From: Escherichia phage MatMar
Reading direction: 5' to 3' (one strand)
DNA length: 50,761 nucleotides
Sequence record: OR896829.1
A model generated the notes under the pieces. That model searched no databases and was not told the DNA's origin. It saw nothing but the letters and a program-made list of their open reading frames with translations. Position numbers and translations under genes: made by a program. Positions 30,881 through 43,854 of this stretch are shown in pieces; the first letter of the stretch is position 1, and every line of letters starts with the position of its first letter.

Positions 30881-31582
30881 GTGAAGAAAGAAATTGAAAT
30901 CAGCTTTGAACAAATCGAACGAGAAACGTTTGTAGGTAATGCCCTAGCGACCGGAGGCCATTACCAGGCAGTTAAGTCAAATCAATATTTCAAAGTGACG
31001 GGCAACCGATATAACGGAAGCAATACGCCGGACGTTGTGCGCGATTTATGGTCTACACCATCAGAGCTTGTCGCATGGATGGAAAGCGAATATGGTGATT
31101 ATGACATCGACGCGGCAGCAAGCAAAGATAATGCTGTATGCGAAAAATTCTACAGCAAGGAAACGAATTGCTTAAAGCGTTGGTGGGGTAGTAATAAGCA
31201 CATCTGGCTTAATCCACCATACAGCAACATCACGCCATTCGTTAAGAAAGCGATTGAGCAGATGGAGCACAACAACCAGATCGACATGCTTTTACCATGC
31301 GACACATCAACAGGATGGTTTTATGAAGCGCAACAGCACGCGGCGGAAATAATCTGGATCACTGGAGAAGTTTACAAAGAGGATGGAACAGAATATTCAC
31401 GCACCGGACGCCTGGCGTTTACTTCCGCACTTACAGGTAAACCAGTACAGGGCAACAACAAAGGAAGCGTTATTTTCATCATGCGTGAACTGAAAGAAGG
31501 CGAGCATCAGAAAACGCGATACGTTAAAATCAGCGACATTTGCCCTTCCGTGGCAGAGCGTCGGGCAAGAAAGCGGAGTTAA
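30881..31582 (+). CDS. DNA N6-adenine methyltransferase (phage Dam-like)
   Basis: 233 aa, GTG start after GAGGA RBS; catalytic NPPY motif (WLNPPYSN). Confidence 0.65.
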   Translation: MKKEIEISFEQIERETFVGNALATGGHYQAVKSNQYFKVTGNRYNGSNTPDVVRDLWSTPSELVAWMESEYGDYDIDAAASKDNAVCEKFYSKETNCLKRWWGSNKHIWLNPPYSNITPFVKKAIEQMEHNNQIDMLLPCDTSTGWFYEAQQHAAEIIWITGEVYKEDGTEYSRTGRLAFTSALTGKPVQGNNKGSVIFIMRELKEGEHQKTRYVKISDICPSVAERRARKRS

Positions 31583-31586
31583 TATC

Positions 31587-31844
31587 ATGCAAAAAGAAAG
31601 AAGCGTTTATTTAAATGAGTGTGGCGAATGGTTGCTTTATCGCGCTATGGTTTGCGATGCGCTTGATAAAAACCCTAACGTGAAAAAGATGATTGATTGC
31701 GATCCGTGGGAATTTTCAAGCGCATTGGATATGAGCTTTGAGGAGACAAAAAAACTCCCGCTTGAAAAATGGCATGAACAGATCAGAAATGACATGCAAG
31801 AATTTGTCGATTCGTGGAATTTTCAGCACGGAATGATCCACTAA
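31587..31844 (+). CDS. hypothetical protein
   Basis: 85 aa ORF. Confidence 0.45.
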   Translation: MQKERSVYLNECGEWLLYRAMVCDALDKNPNVKKMIDCDPWEFSSALDMSFEETKKLPLEKWHEQIRNDMQEFVDSWNFQHGMIH

Positions 31845-31887
31845 CAGCACTTTTTGTTAAAACGCCCGGCATTTTGTCGGGCATAAT
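31842..31887 (+). promoter_or_regulatory. AAATAGCAC module (CAGCAC variant), hairpin spacer, CATAAT at N22
   Basis: taacagcactttttgttaaaac gcccggcattttgtcggg cataat. Confidence 0.5.
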
Positions 31888-31919
31888 TATTTCATCGAAA
31901 CGAAAATGAGGAAATAAAA

Positions 31920-32099
31920 ATGGTAGTATATAGCAAGAAAGCATTTGACCAGGCGCAACAAACCGCACGCGAGGCGGTAAAAGGTGGAACGAAAAACAAT
32001 ATGCAGCTTGATTGGGGCGCTGCAATGATTCTACTTCGCGTTGCATATGGTCACTACCCATTAGAATTTGCGGAGGCATATTATAAGCATGAAAGTTGA
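31920..32099 (+). CDS. hypothetical small protein (59 aa)
   Basis: ORF below the track threshold; GAGGA RBS 8 nt upstream; follows promoter-like module. Confidence 0.4.
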   Translation: MVVYSKKAFDQAQQTAREAVKGGTKNNMQLDWGAAMILLRVAYGHYPLEFAEAYYKHES

Positions 32100-32331
32100 A
32101 CAAGGGCGTGAAGCAGTCTGGCAACATATAAACGAAATGGGGATGGCTGACGACATAAAGAAGATCGCGCAATATTTCGATATTGCAGACATCAGCGTGA
32201 TCGGAGGCGGCAAAATGACTTTCCTCAAGGAAAAGCCGCGCAAGATGGTGCGAGTTCCAGCCATACCAACAAAAATTGATTTCAAAGAGGCAATGTCTAA
32301 AATTCGAGAGCCTCGCAAATATTATAAGTGA
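32089..32331 (+). CDS. hypothetical protein
   Basis: 80 aa from ATG 32089; overlaps 3' end of upstream small ORF. Confidence 0.4.
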   Translation: MKVEQGREAVWQHINEMGMADDIKKIAQYFDIADISVIGGGKMTFLKEKPRKMVRVPAIPTKIDFKEAMSKIREPRKYYK

Positions 32332-32342
32332 GGATGGTTATC

Positions 32343-32420
32343 ATGTGGCGCTTGTTTGTTCTACCGTTACCCGTTATCATTGCGACCGCTATCATATATA
32401 GTATCGTAATGCACCAATAG
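32343..32420 (+). CDS. possible 25-aa hydrophobic peptide
   Basis: MWRLFVLPLPVIIATAIIYSIVMHQ; GAGGA RBS at correct spacing; not in ORF track. Confidence 0.25.
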   Translation: MWRLFVLPLPVIIATAIIYSIVMHQ

Positions 32421-32431
32421 GAGAAAAAATC

Positions 32432-33550
32432 ATGAGTCAGAGCAAGATAACGGACGAGCAATTCACGCATGAGCGATTAAAGGGTAAGAGCTATCGTCAG
32501 ATTGCTGAGGAATACGGCCTTAACGTTCGTAGCGTCGAGCGCCGAGCGGCACGACTGGCAAAACAGGGTAAAATATCAACCATCGGAACTCCTGGTTTTG
32601 GTGTTCACGGTGAATCGGTCATGACCGACAAAGAAGGTAACGTGATCGTCAAATGGACAAAGACCAGTAAGGACAAAGAGCAACTGGAAGCGTTGATGCG
32701 TGCAGCTATGGACGCTTTTACCGAAGAATTGCCGCGAGTAGATCCGACACCGGAAGAAGCGAGCGAATACAGCGAAAGCCTTGCCCTTTACCCCGTTTTT
32801 GATATGCACCTGGGAGCTATGGCGCACAAACACGAATGCGGCGAGAATTGGGATACTTCCACGGCTGAGAAAGTAATGAATGACTTTTTCGATTATGCTG
32901 TGGCCTGTGCACCGTTCAGCGAGAAAGCAGTGCTACTGATTGGGGGTGACATGCTTCATAGTGACGGCCTGGAAGCAGTAACGCCTGCAAGCGGTCACGT
33001 CCTGGATCAAGATAGCCGATACGCAAAATTGGTTTACGTGGCAATCCGCGCCGTCCGTCGTGCCATTGAGTTGATGCTCAAAAAACACAAAGAAGTAGAG
33101 ATCCAGATAATTGAGGGAAACCATGACCAAAGCGGCATGATCTGGTTACGTGCAGCTATGGCGGCGGCATATGAAAAAGAGCCGCGCGTTTACGTTGATG
33201 TATCGCCGCGAGTGGTTCACCATACGCAGTACGGAAAAACCTTCCTTGCATATCATCACGGTCACACCGTCCGCAAGCCGGAAACATTGCTAATGATGTG
33301 CGCGGCAGACTGGCGGGAGGACTTCGGCAACTCAAAAACGATGTATGCGCACGTAGGGCATTTTCATCATCAGACTGTAACAGAAACATCGCTCGGCATT
33401 GTTGAAGTACATAGCACGATGGCAGCTAAAGACGCATACGCCGCGCGAGGCGGTTGGCGTTCCCGTCGCCGTGCTGCGGTTATCATTTACGACAAAGAAC
33501 ACGGCGAAATCGGACGATTTATGTTTTATCCTGAGATGGCAGAGAAATAA
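32432..33550 (+). CDS. HTH domain fused to calcineurin-like metallophosphoesterase
   Basis: 372 aa; N-terminal HTH (SYRQIAEEYGLNVRSVERRAARL); phosphoesterase motifs DMH, GDMLHSDG, GNHD, GHFHH in order. Confidence 0.5.
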   Translation: MSQSKITDEQFTHERLKGKSYRQIAEEYGLNVRSVERRAARLAKQGKISTIGTPGFGVHGESVMTDKEGNVIVKWTKTSKDKEQLEALMRAAMDAFTEELPRVDPTPEEASEYSESLALYPVFDMHLGAMAHKHECGENWDTSTAEKVMNDFFDYAVACAPFSEKAVLLIGGDMLHSDGLEAVTPASGHVLDQDSRYAKLVYVAIRAVRRAIELMLKKHKEVEIQIIEGNHDQSGMIWLRAAMAAAYEKEPRVYVDVSPRVVHHTQYGKTFLAYHHGHTVRKPETLLMMCAADWREDFGNSKTMYAHVGHFHHQTVTETSLGIVEVHSTMAAKDAYAARGGWRSRRRAAVIIYDKEHGEIGRFMFYPEMAEK

Positions 33551-33721
33551 ATGAAAGTACGTTGCACCAGAAACACATCTAAGCAATTGCCTTATACCGT
33601 CGGCCTGATTTACACGGCTGTAGCAATTCCTGGCGGCATGTATGAGATCCGCGACGGGCAAGGCAGTGCAATAATCGCACCATTACACGGCTATTACCTG
33701 ACTTTTTCACCAGCAGAATAA
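33551..33721 (+). CDS. hypothetical small protein (56 aa)
   Basis: ATG immediately after upstream stop; not in ORF track. Confidence 0.3.
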   Translation: MKVRCTRNTSKQLPYTVGLIYTAVAIPGGMYEIRDGQGSAIIAPLHGYYLTFSPAE

Positions 33722-33742
33722 CCATATAAAACATTAACTTAT

Positions 33743-33780
33743 AAGGAGGCTTAATTTACAAGCCTCCTTTTTTTATTTAT
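33743..33780 (+). terminator. strong rho-independent terminator-like hairpin
   Basis: aaggaggcttaatttacaagcctcctt followed by tttttttatttatttttt. Confidence 0.6.
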
Positions 33781-33844
33781 TTTTTCAGCACAATGTTTAA
33801 AATGCAATCATCACTATTGACATTTGAATAAAGAGGATCTAAAA

Positions 33845-34060
33845 ATGAAAGATTTTTTGAACGCTGCAACGTCAGGCACGGGTGGTGCATCAATCACGGG
33901 AGCAGTAACAGGACAAACTGCAATTGCAATTGCCAGCTTCGTATTGATGGCTATTTTCGGCGTGTGGGGCGCTTATCTGCGGTGGCGTGATAGTAAAGCC
34001 TTCCAGAAGGCGCTTGATAGTGGTGACTTTAAAAAAGCAATTGAAATTAGGGGTAAATAA
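33845..34060 (+). CDS. holin (small single-TMD, pinholin-like)
   Basis: 71 aa from ATG 33845 with AAGAGGA RBS; one hydrophobic segment then charged C-terminus; directly upstream of endolysin. Confidence 0.5.
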
Positions 34061-34548
34061 TGAGCGCAAGAAATAGCGTCGTCGCCGTCGCCATCGGCGC
34101 TGCGCTTGCTCTTACTTCTCCACTTCTTGAGGAAATAGAAGGGATCAGATACACGCCATATAAAGATATTGCCGGAGTCTGGACGGTATGCGCCGGAATC
34201 ACCGGAAAAGATGTGATTATCGGCAAGACCTACACAAAGCGCGAATGCGATGCGCTACTGGCAAAACATATCAAGGTGGCGAAGGATGAAGTAGACAAGC
34301 GCGTGAAGGTTGAAATCCCAGCCACGATGAGAGCGGCGATGTATAGTTTCACTTTTAACGCTGGTGTGGGTGCATTCCGCAATTCGACAATGCTTAAACT
34401 GATTAATCAGGGCAGATTGCCGGAAGCGTGCCAGCAGTTATGGCGGTGGGATAAATTCACGAATCCTAAAACCGGAAAGAAAGAACGCTCTAAAGGTTTA
34501 CGCAACCGTCGCGCGGTTGAGTTTAAATACTGCATGAGGGATCTGTAA
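34060..34548 (+). CDS. endolysin, lysozyme-type with N-terminal signal-anchor-release segment
   Basis: 162 aa; hydrophobic N-terminus [18 protein letters not shown] then [22 protein letters not shown] lysozyme catalytic region. Confidence 0.7.
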
Positions 34549-34934
34549 TGAAACGAATCACAGCTATTGCACTGGCGGTTTTATTGTCCGGCTGTTCTGC
34601 TATAAGTCCAGTTGACCTACTGACCGGAAGTAAGCCAGATATTAGCGCCCAGGCTGGCGCGGAGAACGTGAAGCAGGCCGTTGGTATTACCGCAAAAAAA
34701 GACTCCAGCAGCAAGCAGGAAAACACCTTTAAAGAATCGAAGGTCGAAAAGGTGGATACATCCAGCAAGAAGACGGTTAAGGCATCAACCATTCAGGCCA
34801 ATACCATCAATGCGGAAAAAATCCAGGTTGTGCAGGGTGATAACGGCAGATGGTACGACCCGATAATCGTATGTTTTGCCACATTCGCCGTAATGCTTGC
34901 TATCTACTTCTGGACAAATAAAAAGGAGGCTTAA
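34548..34934 (+). CDS. unimolecular spanin (lipoprotein N-terminus plus C-terminal TMD)
   Basis: 128 aa; lipobox LLSGCS at N-terminus; C-terminal hydrophobic helix IIVCFATFAVMLAIYFW; last gene of lysis cassette. Confidence 0.55.
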   Translation: MKRITAIALAVLLSGCSAISPVDLLTGSKPDISAQAGAENVKQAVGITAKKDSSSKQENTFKESKVEKVDTSSKKTVKASTIQANTINAEKIQVVQGDNGRWYDPIIVCFATFAVMLAIYFWTNKKEA

Positions 34935-34948
34935 AGCCTCCTTTATTT
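34923..34948. terminator. bidirectional terminator-like hairpin between convergent operons
   Basis: aggaggcttaaagcctcct followed by tatttttaagc. Confidence 0.55.
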
Positions 34949-35167
34949 TTAAGCATCAGGCCATTCGTGTGAATGATTTGTTAGCTTCTGGTTTTCCTGA
35001 AATTCAATATCATAATGACCAGCCATTACGCGTTTAGCCATTTCCTCAACATATCCGACAGCTTGCTCGTGAGTCCAAGAGTCGGCTGGGAATTTTGTAG
35101 GGATCTCAGTGGTAGTGCCGTTTTCATGTTTGATAATCAGCGCCACGGTAAAAAATTTGTTGCTCAT
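34949..35167 (-). CDS. hypothetical protein
   Basis: 72 aa from ATG at 35167 with GAGGA RBS; last gene of leftward operon. Confidence 0.45.
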   Translation of the reverse strand: MSNKFFTVALIIKHENGTTTEIPTKFPADSWTHEQAVGYVEEMAKRVMAGHYDIEFQENQKLTNHSHEWPDA

Positions 35168-35199
35168 TTTGTTTTCCTCATATTCGTTTCGATGAAACA

Positions 35200-35245
35200 A
35201 ATATACCCGACTATAAGCCGGGCGTTTTAACAAAAAGTGCTATTC
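35200..35245 (-). promoter_or_regulatory. AAATAGCAC module, hairpin spacer, TATATT at N22
   Basis: - strand: gaatagcactttttgttaaaac gcccggcttatagtcggg tatatt; box overlaps stop of upstream gene. Confidence 0.5.
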
Positions 35246-35437
35246 CATCCGCTTCACCGTAACCAGCAAGACACCATCATCATCACATAAATTGTGTTCG
35301 GAAGTGTCAAAGGCACGCATATCCGATAAAAGCAGCGTAAGTAACGCATGAATGAAATCATCATGTGATATTGAATTTACGGCGCAAAATTTCAATATCT
35401 TGTCTATTAGACTTTGCTCCAAAGAGTTCATCATCAC
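35240..35437 (-). CDS. hypothetical protein
   Basis: 65 aa; AGGAGA RBS upstream of ATG at 35434; 5' part overlaps 3' end of upstream gene in another frame. Confidence 0.4.
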   Translation of the reverse strand: MMMNSLEQSLIDKILKFCAVNSISHDDFIHALLTLLLSDMRAFDTSEHNLCDDDGVLLVTVKRME

Positions 35438-35756
35438 TCATTTCTCCTATCCGTGCCATATCCCTTATCCATTCATTTTGCATTCCCTCAAAGGTGTAAA
35501 ATTCGAATCCGAACGGCCTACGGGCAGATCCGTCAATGCACCAAAATCTACCTTCAACGCCATCCAGATAACCAGCGCCCATCATTCTTGCGCAAAACTC
35601 TTTCGATAGCATGGAAGCGAACATGCGCGGGGTGAATCCGGCCTGCTTCGCCAGGCGTTCACATTCTCTGTGCTGATAGATAAATTTTGCAATGTGCTGA
35701 CGAGTAAACCAGTCGTAAGACTCACACCATCTGTAGAGATCCAGAATGAACATCAT
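35361..35756 (-). CDS. hypothetical protein
   Basis: 131 aa; start ATG overlaps stop (TAATG) of upstream 527-aa gene. Confidence 0.45.
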   Translation of the reverse strand: MMFILDLYRWCESYDWFTRQHIAKFIYQHRECERLAKQAGFTPRMFASMLSKEFCARMMGAGYLDGVEGRFWCIDGSARRPFGFEFYTFEGMQNEWIRDMARIGEMSDDELFGAKSNRQDIEILRRKFNIT

Positions 35757-37339
35757 TACCCCATTAACACAGGATTCACAAAAATAACACCATTAATAAC
35801 ACAAACGTAGTTTTTTTGCTCAAGCATCGGAAGCAGTTGCGATTCTATGCGCTTCATCACGCCAGCTTGCCCCAGGAAAGGTTTTACCTTGCGTGCTGCC
35901 TCATACAAAGCGCGGACATTCAATACGCCTTTATTTGCCTTACCGTGGCGGGTGATTAACTCAATCAGTTTTGACATCTCGGCATCATCACCAGCATAGC
36001 CGGACGCGTTCGCCGCGCTGATATACGTTTTGCTCAATTCATGGAACATCAGCAAGGCTTCTTGCATCGTGTCAACGTCAATCTCTCTAGACTTTTGCGG
36101 GTATCCAGCAGGATTAAACCAATTGCGTATCACATGCAGAACGGCAGCAATGCGGATCACCTGCTTATCCATTTTACCCAGCGCACCGCGTAGCATCGTA
36201 TGCGAATACTTTCCGCCGTCGGCAAGATGCGGTTCCATATCCTGGCGTGCAATGTTCAGCACGCGCATTGCAGAACGGCTAACTTTCAGAGAAACGTTAA
36301 TTTCGCTCATAATGTTATGCACCAACTGAAAGTATTGCGCTTTCAATTCACCGTCTACTGGTTCGTAAGTTGAATCACCATTCTCATCCACAAATACACG
36401 CGTACCGATTAACGGCTGTTCGCGCACCAGTAGAAAACGCTCGCTTACACCGATGCCACGAGATCCTGCATCCATGATGCCATTAATGGTTTCATCCTGG
36501 GCGATAACACTCATACATCCAAGCGCAAAAAAACTCATGTTATTGTCTGCATTAGAACGGGCGATAGAAACATGGCCGTGATCCCATGCTTTTAACACAA
36601 GTTCGCTGTTAGTTTTGCGCTCGCTATTCGCGTAAGTCAGGCCAAGCAGACTGTTAATACTGGTTGCTTCATCAGAAATAACCGCGAAGTTTCCTTGTCT
36701 GTTATTTATCTTTGCTAATCCCTCTGGTGTGGTGTCGGAGACAGGGAAAACAACATCGCAAAGTTTGCTTAGTTTTTCTTCCAGATCTTCTTTTTCTTGA
36801 TATAGAATCTCCATATCTGCGCCGGAGCGTTCGCTTTTCATCTCCTTTAGTAGTCCGGCAAGTTTTGCCTGTATCTTTTTCCGTTCCTTCTTGCGTTGCT
36901 CGTTGATGCGCTCAACTTCTGCAACCATAGGCGCAATAGCCAGACTGTTAATCGCGGATTTACCTGCCGACGGAGGCTGGCTTGTCACAACGTAAAGCGC
37001 GGTCGGCTGATCGGTTCCGTGGTAGTCAACTGTGAATCGACCAAGCATAGCGGCAGAAATACATCCGATAAAGTGCATGTAGGCCGATGATTCAGGGAAT
37101 TGAACAGATCTCGCAAGATTGCGCGCCAGCTTACCAACTACATCAACATCATTCCCAAGTGAAATGACAGGGTAGCGGTCGTTAGCGCCGTTAATATCTT
37201 CCACCTGGCCCCAATAGCTTGAAGATTGGCGGTATCCGTTGGCCTGAATGGATACACGAACAGGGGAAATACCTTGAGATTCGGCGGTTTCAATGATTTG
37301 TTTCGGTGATAACTGACTTGTTTCAAATGAAAAATTCAT
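35756..37339 (-). CDS. large early protein with P-loop-like motif (putative NTPase)
   Basis: 527 aa; deviant Walker A PPSAGKS and Walker-B-like AVISDEAT separated by charged coiled-coil-like insert. Confidence 0.4.
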   Translation of the reverse strand: MNFSFETSQLSPKQIIETAESQGISPVRVSIQANGYRQSSSYWGQVEDINGANDRYPVISLGNDVDVVGKLARNLARSVQFPESSAYMHFIGCISAAMLGRFTVDYHGTDQPTALYVVTSQPPSAGKSAINSLAIAPMVAEVERINEQRKKERKKIQAKLAGLLKEMKSERSGADMEILYQEKEDLEEKLSKLCDVVFPVSDTTPEGLAKINNRQGNFAVISDEATSINSLLGLTYANSERKTNSELVLKAWDHGHVSIARSNADNNMSFFALGCMSVIAQDETINGIMDAGSRGIGVSERFLLVREQPLIGTRVFVDENGDSTYEPVDGELKAQYFQLVHNIMSEINVSLKVSRSAMRVLNIARQDMEPHLADGGKYSHTMLRGALGKMDKQVIRIAAVLHVIRNWFNPAGYPQKSREIDVDTMQEALLMFHELSKTYISAANASGYAGDDAEMSKLIELITRHGKANKGVLNVRALYEAARKVKPFLGQAGVMKRIESQLLPMLEQKNYVCVINGVIFVNPVLMG

Positions 37340-37366
37340 TAAATCGACTCCTATTTGGTGCGGTGT

Positions 37367-37413
37367 ATGTTACCGCACCAATACTACCCTTATTTGTCAA
37401 AAAGTGCTATTTG
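37367..37413 (-). promoter_or_regulatory. AAATAGCAC module (TTGACA variant), hairpin spacer, TAACAT at N22
   Basis: - strand: aaatagcactttttgacaa N22 taacat acaccgcacc. Confidence 0.45.
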
Positions 37414-37628
37414 ATCCGCTCGATTGCAACCAGTAGGCGATCCGGCTGGCGGTCGCTGTAGCATTCTCCGGTTACATCATCCTTAAAAGTGAAGTAAAGC
37501 GACTTGTGATATGAATACCCAATCAGCCAACCTTCCGCAGTTCTCTTTATTGGCCTGACAATATCGCCAGGCTTGAAAGTTGCAGTTGTGGCGTGAGTTA
37601 CTTTATATCGGTATTCACTGCGGATCAT
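37407..37628 (-). CDS. hypothetical protein
   Basis: 73 aa ORF. Confidence 0.45.
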   Translation of the reverse strand: MIRSEYRYKVTHATTATFKPGDIVRPIKRTAEGWLIGYSYHKSLYFTFKDDVTGECYSDRQPDRLLVAIERIK

Positions 37629-38011
37629 GAATATTTGGCCTCAAAAAGATAAGAGTAACCAGCAGAGAATCCGACCTCCTCGCGGTAGAGCGTCCATCGG
37701 TCGCCGTCCTCATCGAAGACGTAACCAGCAACTGATCCAAGAACGCGACCCTGTTCGACCTGGTAACGCTTTCCAGCTTTAAAACTTTTTTTGGTTGCCA
37801 TCCGGTGATCAACAAACGTACATAGAATCGTCTTTGCCTTGATAGTGCGGTATTCGTCCTGGTTGGCTGATTCCCACTTCGCGCCCTTAGCCAGCGCCTT
37901 AACCTGAAATTCCTCCATCTCGATCACGTCGTCGCTGCCAGCTACTTTTGTGTAAACAGTTTTATAGCGACCGTTCATCAATTTGTTGTCGGAATTGCGG
38001 ATAACTTTCAT
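37625..38011 (-). CDS. hypothetical protein
   Basis: 128 aa ORF. Confidence 0.45.
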   Translation of the reverse strand: MKVIRNSDNKLMNGRYKTVYTKVAGSDDVIEMEEFQVKALAKGAKWESANQDEYRTIKAKTILCTFVDHRMATKKSFKAGKRYQVEQGRVLGSVAGYVFDEDGDRWTLYREEVGFSAGYSYLFEAKYS

Positions 38012-38043
38012 TTGATTTTCTCCAGTTGTTTTCGTTGAAACGC

Positions 38044-38089
38044 ATTATGCCCGACTCAAGGTCGGGCGTTTTAACAAAAAGTGCTATTT
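38044..38089 (-). promoter_or_regulatory. AAATAGCAC module, hairpin spacer, CATAAT at N22
   Basis: - strand: aaatagcactttttgttaaaac gcccgaccttgagtcggg cataat. Confidence 0.5.
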
Positions 38090-38794
38090 TGAGTTTTCCT
38101 CAAATACGGCGCGAGCAAATCCTCGCGGAGTGAGGGAGCGTATCATCTTTGTTCTGGATGATTTGCCACCAGTTTTAGCCCAGCCTGGGTTATCCTTCTC
38201 GGTTGGCAATACCAGTTTTCTCTGTGGAACGATAAAGCCGTTTCCAGTCCAAAGGCATGTTTTCTTAAAGTAGCAATCACGCGCCGGAATAATATCAGGG
38301 AAGTCTGGATGCTTATCATCTTCCGGCAGATAGCCAGCGTAATCGCACGGATGGAACGTATAATCAGGCTTTCGCCATAACGTTGACAACTTGCCAACCG
38401 GATTTTCGATCATGTAAGGAACACCGAAATAATCAGCTATATCAGCCGCGATTCTGCAAGTGTCGGCGGCCTCATCCTGGAACGATGGATTCTCAAGGCG
38501 TTTTTTAGCCCAATGGCGAGATCCGCTATTTGCAAGGTCAGTGCATGGTGGGAAGGCCATAATAAAATCAGGATTGCCCCACTCATTATTTATTGCCTTA
38601 ACATAAAAAGCATCGTCAATCCAGACGTTAACGTATTCGATATTCTCATGCTTTATGCGCACTGACTGGTAATCACCGTGATCGCCACCGTCAGCATTAA
38701 AGCAAATGCACTTATAGCCATTATCAGCCCAATCTTTAACGGCTTTACCAGATCCATCAAATAGGGAGAATATTAAACCTTTATACATCGTCAT
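38084..38794 (-). CDS. DNA cytosine-5 methyltransferase-like protein (short)
   Basis: about 236 aa from ATG near 38794; motif order FDGSG (AdoMet box), PPC (catalytic Pro-Cys), ENPVG (ENV box); ORF track start 38857 is TTG. Confidence 0.4.
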   Translation of the reverse strand: MTMYKGLIFSLFDGSGKAVKDWADNGYKCICFNADGGDHGDYQSVRIKHENIEYVNVWIDDAFYVKAINNEWGNPDFIMAFPPCTDLANSGSRHWAKKRLENPSFQDEAADTCRIAADIADYFGVPYMIENPVGKLSTLWRKPDYTFHPCDYAGYLPEDDKHPDFPDIIPARDCYFKKTCLWTGNGFIVPQRKLVLPTEKDNPGWAKTGGKSSRTKMIRSLTPRGFARAVFEENSK

Positions 38795-39136: not shown

Positions 39137-39178
39137 TTTCCACCTCATTTAAAAGGCGGCAAAACGCCGCCAGATTAA

Positions 39179-41087: not shown

Positions 41088-41681
41088 CATGCCTGGTGCA
41101 TTATTCCAGTTATTCCACGCTCAAAGAATAATCGGAATAAGTTGCTTAACTGTTAAATTGGTTAGTGTGATATGCGTTTACCAGGTTTTTCGATTGATTG
41201 CGTGTGTGATTAATCATGTGTGGCGGGGTGTATAGAAAGTAGTTGCCCTCTCGCCTCGTCCTGGTGGCGTCAGCAAACAGAAGCTGTTTATTTTGTTCGC
41301 GCGTGTTCGCGTTTCAGGGCGGCATGTTTCCGCGCTGTTTTTCAATGTATTGCGAACGCAAAAAACAAAATAAATCCCTTATAATACATTGAAAATAAAG
41401 AATATTTATTTATGTATATATTTATGTGTTATTTCTTGTTAGCGTTGTTAGTGTGGTATGTGATGGTTGCGGTGTCGCTTTGTTGGTATATATATGGATA
41501 GTTGCGCGCCTGGTGGAATGAGTATGTGTATATATACTTTTATTGCGATATTGCGCTAACAGCGCGAACAGAAAGAAAACAAGCGACAAAAACTTATTGC
41601 AAATCATGTTGTTATGTAGCGATTATCTCAAAACGTCGACAACGCGAACAGGCCGCGAACGTTATACGGACAAAATAAACA

Positions 41682-41709
41682 TTGACACGCATGAAATAGC
41701 AATTATAAT
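41682..41709 (+). promoter_or_regulatory. consensus sigma70-like promoter (TTGACA N16 TATAAT) for rightward early operon
   Basis: read directly; spacer contains AAATAGCA. Confidence 0.55.
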
Positions 41710-41740
41710 GGCCTGCAACTGACCAACAGGAGGAATGACA

Positions 41741-42202
41741 ATGAGTCAGAAAACATCGAAAGACTATTGCGACTGGTTGCGAGAGCTTGGTCGACGCCTT
41801 GCAAGCGGCGAGATTGTAGAGCATAAAATGTCAGTTCTCGACCTTGCCGGAATGTTAAACGGCGACGACTACTACAAGGTGACAAAGAATCAGGCATACA
41901 GCCGCACAATAATCAACCGCGTGCCGGAAGTGAAAGCGGTTGGAAAGGTGCGAATCAGAACGGAAGAAACGGAAGACGATAAGTTTTACGTTTTCAGCCT
42001 GAATCGCGACGTTAAGCGCAAGGTGATTACGAGCGAGGACTTGCCAGCAGTCCAGGCAAAGGCGGTTGAAAAGTTCGCCGCTCGCATTCTTGCATCAATG
42101 CCGAACGTTACCGACATGCAAGGCGATAAACTGGCTGGAGCTTGCGAAGGAATAAGTCGCTACCAGGAAATGATCCGCAATCTTGTTAACGAGGAGAAAT
42201 GA
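41741..42202 (+). CDS. hypothetical protein
   Basis: 153 aa from ATG 41741 with AGGAGG RBS. Confidence 0.45.
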   Translation: MSQKTSKDYCDWLRELGRRLASGEIVEHKMSVLDLAGMLNGDDYYKVTKNQAYSRTIINRVPEVKAVGKVRIRTEETEDDKFYVFSLNRDVKRKVITSEDLPAVQAKAVEKFAARILASMPNVTDMQGDKLAGACEGISRYQEMIRNLVNEEK

Positions 42203-42892: not shown

Positions 42893-42960
42893 TAAGCCAG
42901 GCCGCAAAATCCGGCCTATAACCAGAAATAATTTTGTTAAACCAATCAGGAGAAAGCACC

Positions 42961-43854
42961 ATGTTAAAACTTGCTGACATTAAATTCCCGATCACCTTCG
43001 AATCTCGCGGCATTGGTCATTACATTTTTACTGATGAAAAAACATGCCATAAAGTTGATTTGCATAGCTACAAGCGTGCGCCATCAGACATGGAGATTGA
43101 ACACTTCATTGATGCACACAATACGCACTACAACGCCCTTAAAGACTATGGCTATGCAATGCCAGGATATACCAGCTTCCACTACAAGCCATATAAAGGC
43201 CAGGTGTTGCCAGTGCGCTCACCGGAACGCGCAGAGATTCCGATGGTCGATATGAAAACATGCGACTACAAAAAGCTGTGGTGCTTAAGTGTGGACAATA
43301 TCAAGTACCCGATCACGTTCTACACGGTTGGTAATTCAACGATTCGCTTCACATCGCGCGACAATGGCGTTTATAGCGATGGTCAGAAATCAGAGTTGAA
43401 AGTTGATTTCTTTGTTGATGGTCACAATAGATACAATCCACACAACGAAAAAGATAAGGTGTACTACGTGGAAGATATTACAAAACACTTATTTGGAGAA
43501 ACACCATTCGGCGGCGGGAAGACGTCAATTCATCAAATCATTGGCGAGGAGATCCACAAAGCGGCTGCCGAAATGAAAGCGCCTGGAGGATGGCGTATTG
43601 ACAAGAGCGCCTTTGCCTATCAAGAAATCGTAACGCAGGGCGCAATTGAAGATATGCCAGTTGCAGCCACGCTAAAAGGAGTCCGGCTTGATGATGGTAC
43701 ATGGTATGAATTAACGGCTACACCAAAGACGATCGAAATTCATGATGATGTTGTTATCCTCCTGCTTCACTATGGCGGCGCTAAAAACCGGACGGTTGCA
43801 GGTGAGATCAGCATCAAGCGCGGAACGATGGTTAAGTGGAAGGTGAAAGTATAA
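42961..43854 (+). CDS. hypothetical protein with internal two-fold repeat
   Basis: 297 aa from ATG 42961 with AGGAGA RBS; repeated motif KFPITFESRG / KYPITFYTVG. Confidence 0.45.
   Translation: MLKLADIKFPITFESRGIGHYIFTDEKTCHKVDLHSYKRAPSDMEIEHFIDAHNTHYNALKDYGYAMPGYTSFHYKPYKGQVLPVRSPERAEIPMVDMKTCDYKKLWCLSVDNIKYPITFYTVGNSTIRFTSRDNGVYSDGQKSELKVDFFVDGHNRYNPHNEKDKVYYVEDITKHLFGETPFGGGKTSIHQIIGEEIHKAAAEMKAPGGWRIDKSAFAYQEIVTQGAIEDMPVAATLKGVRLDDGTWYELTATPKTIEIHDDVVILLLHYGGAKNRTVAGEISIKRGTMVKWKVKV

Follow-up and report, generated by a model that had tools for sequence, protein, structure and literature searches.

Introduction

N6-adenine and C5-cytosine methyltransferases are, in the words of the BASEL paper, "abundantly encoded by Drexlerviridae", and enzymes of both types have been tested in close relatives of the phage considered here. 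This phage is Escherichia phage MatMar, whose sequence of 50,761 nucleotides (OR896829.1, one strand, 5' to 3') is referred to below as the window. It carries a gene of the coliphage T1 Dam type (30881..31582, plus strand), i.e., for an N6-adenine DNA methyltransferase, and a compact gene (38084..38794, minus strand) for a Dcm-like C5-cytosine DNA methyltransferase.

T1 Dam is by experiment an enzyme that forms N6-methyladenine in GATC, and T1 DNA remains sensitive to DpnI when the phage has multiplied in a dam- host, while a CRISPR-made deletion of the phage dam gene leaves GATC unmethylated in such a host (PMC10470545). According to the same study, host Dam methylates T1 DNA only in part, and loss of the phage gene cuts the burst size by about 40%, also in hosts that lack the tested restriction system and have host Dam (PMC10470545).

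The closest tested relative of the second enzyme comes from work on escapers of phage K42 from the retron Ec86 (Eco1) by Wang et al. (bioRxiv 10.1101/2023.08.16.553469; later Cell Rep 2024 43:114857), from which all K42 results below are taken. The K42 genome is 95.4% identical to that of BASEL phage Bas06 KarlJaspers, and a 711-bp gene named "dcm" was disrupted in four of four escapers. Expression of this gene was toxic only with the retron present, and 34 of 35 retron-sensitive phages carry a dcm gene. By liquid chromatography coupled with mass spectrometry (LC-MS), the multicopy single-stranded DNA (msDNA) of the retron was high in 5-methylcytosine (5mC) with wild-type K42 Dcm and not with the quadruple mutant C82A/E128A/K175A/K176A, in which K175 and K176 are substrate-binding residues. 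A CCTGG motif in the msDNA was needed for triggering, the mutants AATGG, ACTGG and CATGG all losing defence, and CCWGG was inferred as the target of the K42 enzyme from E. coli Dcm and these msDNA mutants. In the dcm+ host MG1655, 5mC in the control msDNA was low until the phage enzyme was expressed.

Results

Two methyltransferase genes of different types

The window very probably encodes two independent and active DNA methyltransferases of a Warwickvirus-like T1-family coliphage, with activities read across from those of relatives. The pair is not new as such: both genes are already known and annotated in near-identical phages, whose records list "DNA adenine methyltransferase" together with "DNA-cytosine methylase", or "DNA methyltransferase (x2)".

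The product of the dam-like gene matches Pfam PF05869 (Dam; 1.1e-61, 207.8 bits with the cutoff at 28.1), the NCBIfam equivalog TIGR01712 (phage_N6A_met; 7.4e-55, 185 bits with the cutoff at 97.05) and PHROG 111 (2.5e-84). It shares 67% identity with T1 Dam (YP_003925) over 218 residues, with NPPY aligned, and 94% with the "Dam-like N6-adenine methyltransferase" of Bas06. The gene codes for 233 residues from a GTG start, with a Shine-Dalgarno sequence GAGGA 7 nucleotides upstream, and its NPPY codons, which specify catalytic motif IV of amino-methyltransferases (31211..31222, plus strand; residues 111-114), lie within a WLNPPYS segment that is kept in T1 Dam. By these matches, 30881..31582 is a T1-type dam gene and is fully accounted for by a known family.

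The short protein is 95% identical to bas04_0049 of Bas04 FritzSarasin and 86% identical to bas06_0055 of Bas06 KarlJaspers, both annotated as Dcm-like, over the full length. In Bas06, the gene for the "Dcm-like C5 cytosine methyltransferase" occupies the same position as in the window and measures 711 bp, a size that matches the 711-bp dcm of K42. The K42/BASEL proteins (PHROG 757) share with the window protein their synteny downstream of a DUF3987 helicase gene and two small open reading frames (ORFs), as well as the four residues mutated by Wang et al. (C82, E128, K175 and K176), which are exactly in register if the window protein is counted from its second ATG; the differences consist of the deletion of two residues in a loop (197-198) and of scattered substitutions. 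The short enzyme is hence closely orthologous to a C5 methyltransferase that has been tested and is active, and the window allele would be expected to share its activity.

Start and conserved motifs of the short gene

The short gene encodes 236 residues from the ATG at 38794 (numbering ATG1) or 234 residues from the ATG at 38788 (numbering ATG2), ATG1 numbers being ATG2 numbers plus two. The latter start is likelier because a GAGG box lies 8 nucleotides from it, at Shine-Dalgarno spacing, as against 2 nucleotides from the ATG at 38794. Public records use three starts, i.e., TTG 38857 (257 residues, overlapping the upstream ORF), ATG 38794 and ATG 38788, and Jahat_MG145 annotates a 705-bp version.

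Conservation was assessed in two alignments, one of 22 relatives at 56-82% identity (A1) and one of 100 representatives at 32-56% identity (A2). In ATG1 numbering and on the minus strand throughout, motif I FDGSG, the S-adenosylmethionine (AdoMet)-binding loop, covers residues 12-16 (38747..38761), with D13, G14, S15 and G16 invariant in A1; motif IV PPC covers residues 82-84 (38543..38551), with P83 and the catalytic cysteine C84 (C82 in ATG2 numbering) invariant in A1; and motif VI ENPVG covers residues 130-134 (38393..38407), with E130 (E128 in ATG2 numbering), N131 and P132 invariant in A1. Residues conserved to at least 90% in A2 are, in ATG2 numbering, C82, E128, N129, P130, K175 and R217. 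Since the three motifs are invariant or nearly so in A1 and conserved to at least 90% in A2, chance matches are excluded.

Also invariant in A1 are a strand of the form DxYxKKTxxW and, towards the C-terminus, the segment IRSLTPRGFA. The former includes K177-K178 (K175/K176 in ATG2 numbering; 38261..38266), likewise invariant in A1, at the start of the motif VIII-like strand YFKKTCLW, which stands in place of QxRxR and has no arginine pair but shows a predicted strand in the right place (modelled at residues 179-184). The latter contains the motif IX-like RSLTPRGFAR at residues 219-228 (38111..38140), invariant from R219 to R224 in A1, and the chain stops 8 residues past it, a canonical motif X (GNxV) being absent from the protein. 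K178 and R219 stand only about 40 residues apart, and no separate target-recognition domain is found between motifs VIII and IX.

Most of what an initial annotation had read from the DNA alone is confirmed by these data: two different methyltransferase genes at these coordinates, of the T1-type N6-adenine and the short C5-cytosine type (ORFs, PF05869/TIGR01712, fold and K42 ortholog), NPPY in the Dam-like protein, the order FDGSG, PPC, ENPVG in the short protein, conserved in its relatives, and little room for a target-recognition domain. Its length of 236 residues holds for the ORF from the first ATG, while 234 residues are likelier for the protein itself.

A compact family recognised by its fold

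Comparison with C5-methyltransferase profiles, which the initial annotation had proposed as a check, was negative. With two alternative starts, the short protein gave no match at E values up to 10 in Pfam, including PF00145, and none at E up to 1 in NCBIfam. HMMER searches of the PDB with the single sequence and with a 22-sequence profile reached only E values of about 0.2, to DNMT3B and M.HaeIII across motifs I-IV, and with a 100-sequence profile even these matches were gone; of 100 family representatives, only 2 matched PF00145, at a weak E value of 0.0039. Against E. coli Dcm, hhalign gave a probability of 0.3%, and Smith-Waterman alignment by segment with shuffle controls remained at noise level apart from a resemblance in motif IX, where RSLTPRGFAR against RRLTPRECAR scored 30 (shuffle mean 23.5, sd 3.5), a local score that is not significant alone. 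"Dcm ortholog" was rejected as a name on the hhalign probability and the shuffle-level alignments, and "Dcm-like" is used here as a functional label.

The protein does not fall into an unrelated family, as it matches PHROG 757, "DNA methyltransferase", at 1.2e-85 over its full length (residues 2-235). Its structure model is a complete compact domain (predicted local distance difference test, pLDDT, 86.6; predicted template modelling score, pTM, 0.86) with the fold of a C5-methyltransferase catalytic domain, and the 13 top Foldseek matches to this model are all DNMT3A or DNMT3B. The negative outcome in Pfam and NCBIfam thus reflects a family too diverged for these models rather than an unrelated one, and the C5-methyltransferase assignment rests on the modelled fold together with the published ortholog.

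The family is large. A word-indexed search returned 2,660 clusters of relatives at 90% identity, the best 120 of which are all 215-262 residues long, none with a precomputed Pfam domain, and an exhaustive profile search returned 2,124 representatives at 50% identity, the full-length ones mostly measuring 210-260 residues. By tblastn, the gene is found in about 1,500 phage records, including Escherichia and Klebsiella Drexlerviridae, Dhillonvirus, rV5-like and other large myoviruses, phage D6 and Arthrobacter phages. Between the window gene and its Bas04 ortholog, the synonymous rate dS is 0.27 and the nonsynonymous rate dN 0.026 (dN/dS 0.09), i.e., the gene is under strong purifying selection. 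T1 does not have the Dcm-like gene, and because of this absence the gene is considered accessory within the phage family. One relative, P0254 (563 residues), is a natural fusion of an N-terminal compact C5-like domain with an N6-adenine methyltransferase of the D12 class (PF02086, 2.5e-48, residues 303-546), which brings the two activities together in a single chain. A literature search on phage methylome studies yielded nothing concerning the compact C5 family.

Restriction-site avoidance

Across the whole genome (1-50761), 26 of the 64 hexamer palindromes do not occur at all, although each would be expected about 7-14 times. GGWCC has no site (24-75 expected), CCSGG has 9 and GGSCC 6, and EcoRV and EcoRI have 0 and 2 sites, whereas GATC (253 sites), CCWGG (128), GCGC (348) and CGCG (266) are not depleted. 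Avoidance is much weaker in T1, with 65 CCSGG and 24 GGWCC sites, and its 83 CCWGG sites occur without a Dcm-like gene. That GATC and CCWGG are spared while CCSGG and GGWCC are purged was counted in favour of methylation of both motifs, and the pattern fits such cover but is not proof of it. As a proxy for enzyme specificity, site counts were rejected on account of the CCWGG sites kept by T1 without the gene and of GCGC and CGCG, which are abundant as well.

The close relative Bas04 is reported in the BASEL paper as highly restriction-resistant, which may be explained by extreme site avoidance, and any restriction resistance of the window phage more plausibly stems from such avoidance too, a strategy of much wider reach than methylation by the two enzymes.

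Genome setting

Over the 9.5-kb stretch around both methyltransferase genes, identity is 99.7% with Escherichia phage WaterSpirit and 97.9% with Jahat_MG145, which are classified as Drexlerviridae, Tempevirinae, Warwickvirus, and the window phage is accordingly a Warwickvirus-like T1-family coliphage of the Drexlerviridae. Its rightward unit has the same order as in coliphage T1 (helicase, VRR-NUC, Dam, small ORFs, DNA repair exonuclease, holin, endolysin and spanin), while the leftward unit, which includes the Dcm-like gene, opens with the DUF3987 helicase. The two units converge, in agreement with the rightward and leftward operons of the initial annotation, and are parted by a bidirectional intrinsic terminator (34922..34944, both strands) with a 10-bp stem and a T run on each strand; a minus-strand terminator is annotated at the equivalent place in T1.

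A perfect sigma-70 consensus promoter (TTGACA, 16 nucleotides, TATAAT) is present on the plus strand at 41682-41709, with weaker minus-strand candidates adjoining it, and the region 41603-41841 looks like a divergent control region at which the leftward unit with the Dcm-like gene would start. Within this unit, a strong terminator-like hairpin (GGCGGCG-TTT-TGCCGCC and a T run; 39155-39171, minus strand) lies about 360 nucleotides upstream of the Dcm-like gene, whose expression may need either read-through of the hairpin or a promoter of its own. An ORF of 306 residues (42934..43854, plus strand) has no Pfam match and encodes the largest unassigned protein of the genome, and its WaterSpirit counterpart is annotated as hypothetical.

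Dozens of records labelled as Campylobacter phages (e.g., MG065687, MG065638 and MG065635), with C. jejuni given as host, match sequences of T1-like or rV5-like coliphages at 84-93% identity, and some measure only 22 kb. They probably represent contamination by coliphages or assemblies under a wrong label rather than true phages of Campylobacter.

Discussion

In the reading we favour, i.e., that of two active methyltransferases, the T1-type Dam would by orthology methylate adenine N6 in the GATC sites of phage DNA just after replication, with greater speed and to a fuller extent than host Dam can. The Dcm-like enzyme would be a single Rossmann-type catalytic domain with about 40 residues in place of a target-recognition domain; it would flip out the cytosine, Cys82/84 would attack C6, and the methyl group of AdoMet would be moved to C5. 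The pair would serve to mask sites of the GATC and probably of the CCWGG type, e.g., from MboI/DpnII-like and EcoRII-like enzymes, particularly in dam- or dcm- hosts, and the cost would lie in the ability of retrons to sense methylation.

Several observations weigh against this reading. Canonical C5 methyltransferases are not joined to the short protein by any of the sequence profiles applied, and the missing motif X and the KK(T) in place of RxR mean that its contacts with cofactor and DNA differ from those of textbook enzymes. The CCWGG site count does not discriminate, given the 83 sites kept by T1 without the gene. The BASEL paper reports no simple pattern tying the methyltransferases of Drexlerviridae to restriction resistance, which leaves an anti-restriction benefit putative. 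Lastly, the low 5mC of the control msDNA in a dcm+ host would be odd if host Dcm and the phage enzyme shared a target: either host Dcm has no access to the msDNA, or the target of the phage enzyme differs.

The second of these options leads to an alternative that we hold to be possible, though clearly the less probable one, in which the short enzyme does act as a C5 methyltransferase, but on a target other than the inner cytosine of CCWGG methylated by Dcm, perhaps a shorter or degenerate motif such as a site of 2-3 bp or the outer cytosine, and perhaps as a DNMT3-like dimer. Such a target would suit the mere 40 or so residues from the motif VIII-like strand to motif IX and the lack of any detectable sequence relation to E. 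coli Dcm. The closest structural neighbours read 2-bp sites, as DNMT3A and DNMT3B recognise CpG and CmoX, a C5-carboxymethyltransferase of Synechococcus phage S-B43 (PDB 8YF3), is described as recognising GC. In the data of Wang et al., the low msDNA 5mC of dcm+ MG1655 before expression of the phage enzyme and the loss of defence in all of AATGG, ACTGG and CATGG also agree with it, whereas the requirement for CCTGG in the msDNA does not. CCWGG is moreover spared where its near relatives CCSGG and GGWCC are purged, and methylation of CG, GC or CC would make avoidance of most GC-rich hexamer palindromes needless, yet 26 of the 64 are absent. It is conceivable, if rather doubtful, that the 234-residue protein is near the smallest known functional DNA C5-cytosine methyltransferase, without motif X or a discrete recognition domain, and that it reads DNA unconventionally, through a DNMT3-like dimer or the region of the catalytic loop, with a specificity that may be shorter than or different from CCWGG. 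Were this true, the view of how retron Ec86 tells phage from host methylation would change.

With respect to benefit rather than target, the activity of one or both enzymes might mainly serve the phage itself, in replication or packaging efficiency, in escape from mismatch repair or SeqA on hemimethylated DNA, or in gene regulation. The smaller burst of T1 without dam in the absence of the tested restriction system points in this direction, as do the BASEL survey, with no simple link between methyltransferases and resistance, and a genome that already avoids most restriction sites; but K42 escapers without dcm are viable, the gene being dispensable in the laboratory, and the patchy occurrence of the Dcm-like gene, with its absence from T1, is that of an accessory counter-defence gene. 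We consider a mainly phage-internal role somewhat unlikely. The initial annotation had in turn taken dual methylation as a sign of broad anti-restriction, which is not borne out, as each enzyme masks only sites overlapping its own motif, and the absence of a simple link in BASEL and the effect of dam loss in T1 without restriction go against it as well. Its suggestion that the short C5 enzyme is a truncated or repurposed orphan fares no better. Although the protein is about 90-240 residues shorter than C5 methyltransferases of like fold (273-472 residues) and fails PF00145, its full length is conserved family-wide over thousands of relatives (2,660 clusters; 2,124 representatives), its dN/dS is 0.09, its catalytic motifs are invariant and its modelled domain is complete, and the K42 ortholog, a relative at 86% identity, is active while the quadruple mutant including the catalytic cysteine is inactive, so that it is very improbable that the protein is left over from a normal-length enzyme, be it truncated, in decay or without catalysis. 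Equally remote is transfer of a group other than methyl, for example by a CmoX-like C5-carboxymethyltransferase using host carboxy-S-adenosylmethionine (Cx-SAM). The rise seen by LC-MS with the K42 ortholog is in 5mC; the near-identical annotated genome lists two methyltransferases only, and five further long ORFs of the window have no methyltransferase domain (the 306-residue ORF at 42934..43854 having no match whatever); no CmoA-like or ligase gene is found among the annotated genes of that genome or these five ORFs; and the short protein has a conserved C-terminal asparagine and not the arginine that defines CmoX, the two positions being equated from sequence only.

A compact C5 family with thousands of members in unrelated phage groups that is invisible to Pfam and NCBIfam means that censuses of phage methyltransferases built on these two collections undercount it. 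From the presence of the Dcm-like gene, sensitivity to the Ec86/Eco1 retron carried by E. coli BL21 is also predicted, which bears on the choice of host for phage work. The enzyme offers a small, tractable system for the study of a minimal C5 methyltransferase and its DNA recognition.

Comparison with known methyltransferases

In contrast with the K42/BASEL enzymes, the better-known C5 methyltransferases differ from the short protein in sequence and architecture. The catalytic domains of DNMT3A and DNMT3B show only 13-19% sequence identity with it, and DNMT3 has a motif X of its own, RxR in motif VIII, regulatory domains and a tetrameric arrangement. E. coli Dcm (PF00145) measures 472 residues as against 234; its chemistry is presumed to be the same and motif IX is similar, while the window gene has no adjacent vsr partner. 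CmoX is about 350 residues long or more, binds the carboxylate through Arg350, has an SPPC motif, is described as recognising GC, and is encoded beside CmoA and a ligase; the short protein has FPPC instead of SPPC and a conserved C-terminal asparagine instead of the arginine that in CmoX replaces the asparagine of motif X. For the adenine enzyme, the D12-class Dam of E. coli (PF02086) is unrelated in sequence to the T1-type Dam of the window, which differs from T1 Dam (M.EcoT1Dam) by a divergent N-terminal stretch of about 15 residues and resembles it in its NPPY motif and in its position after the helicase and VRR-NUC genes.

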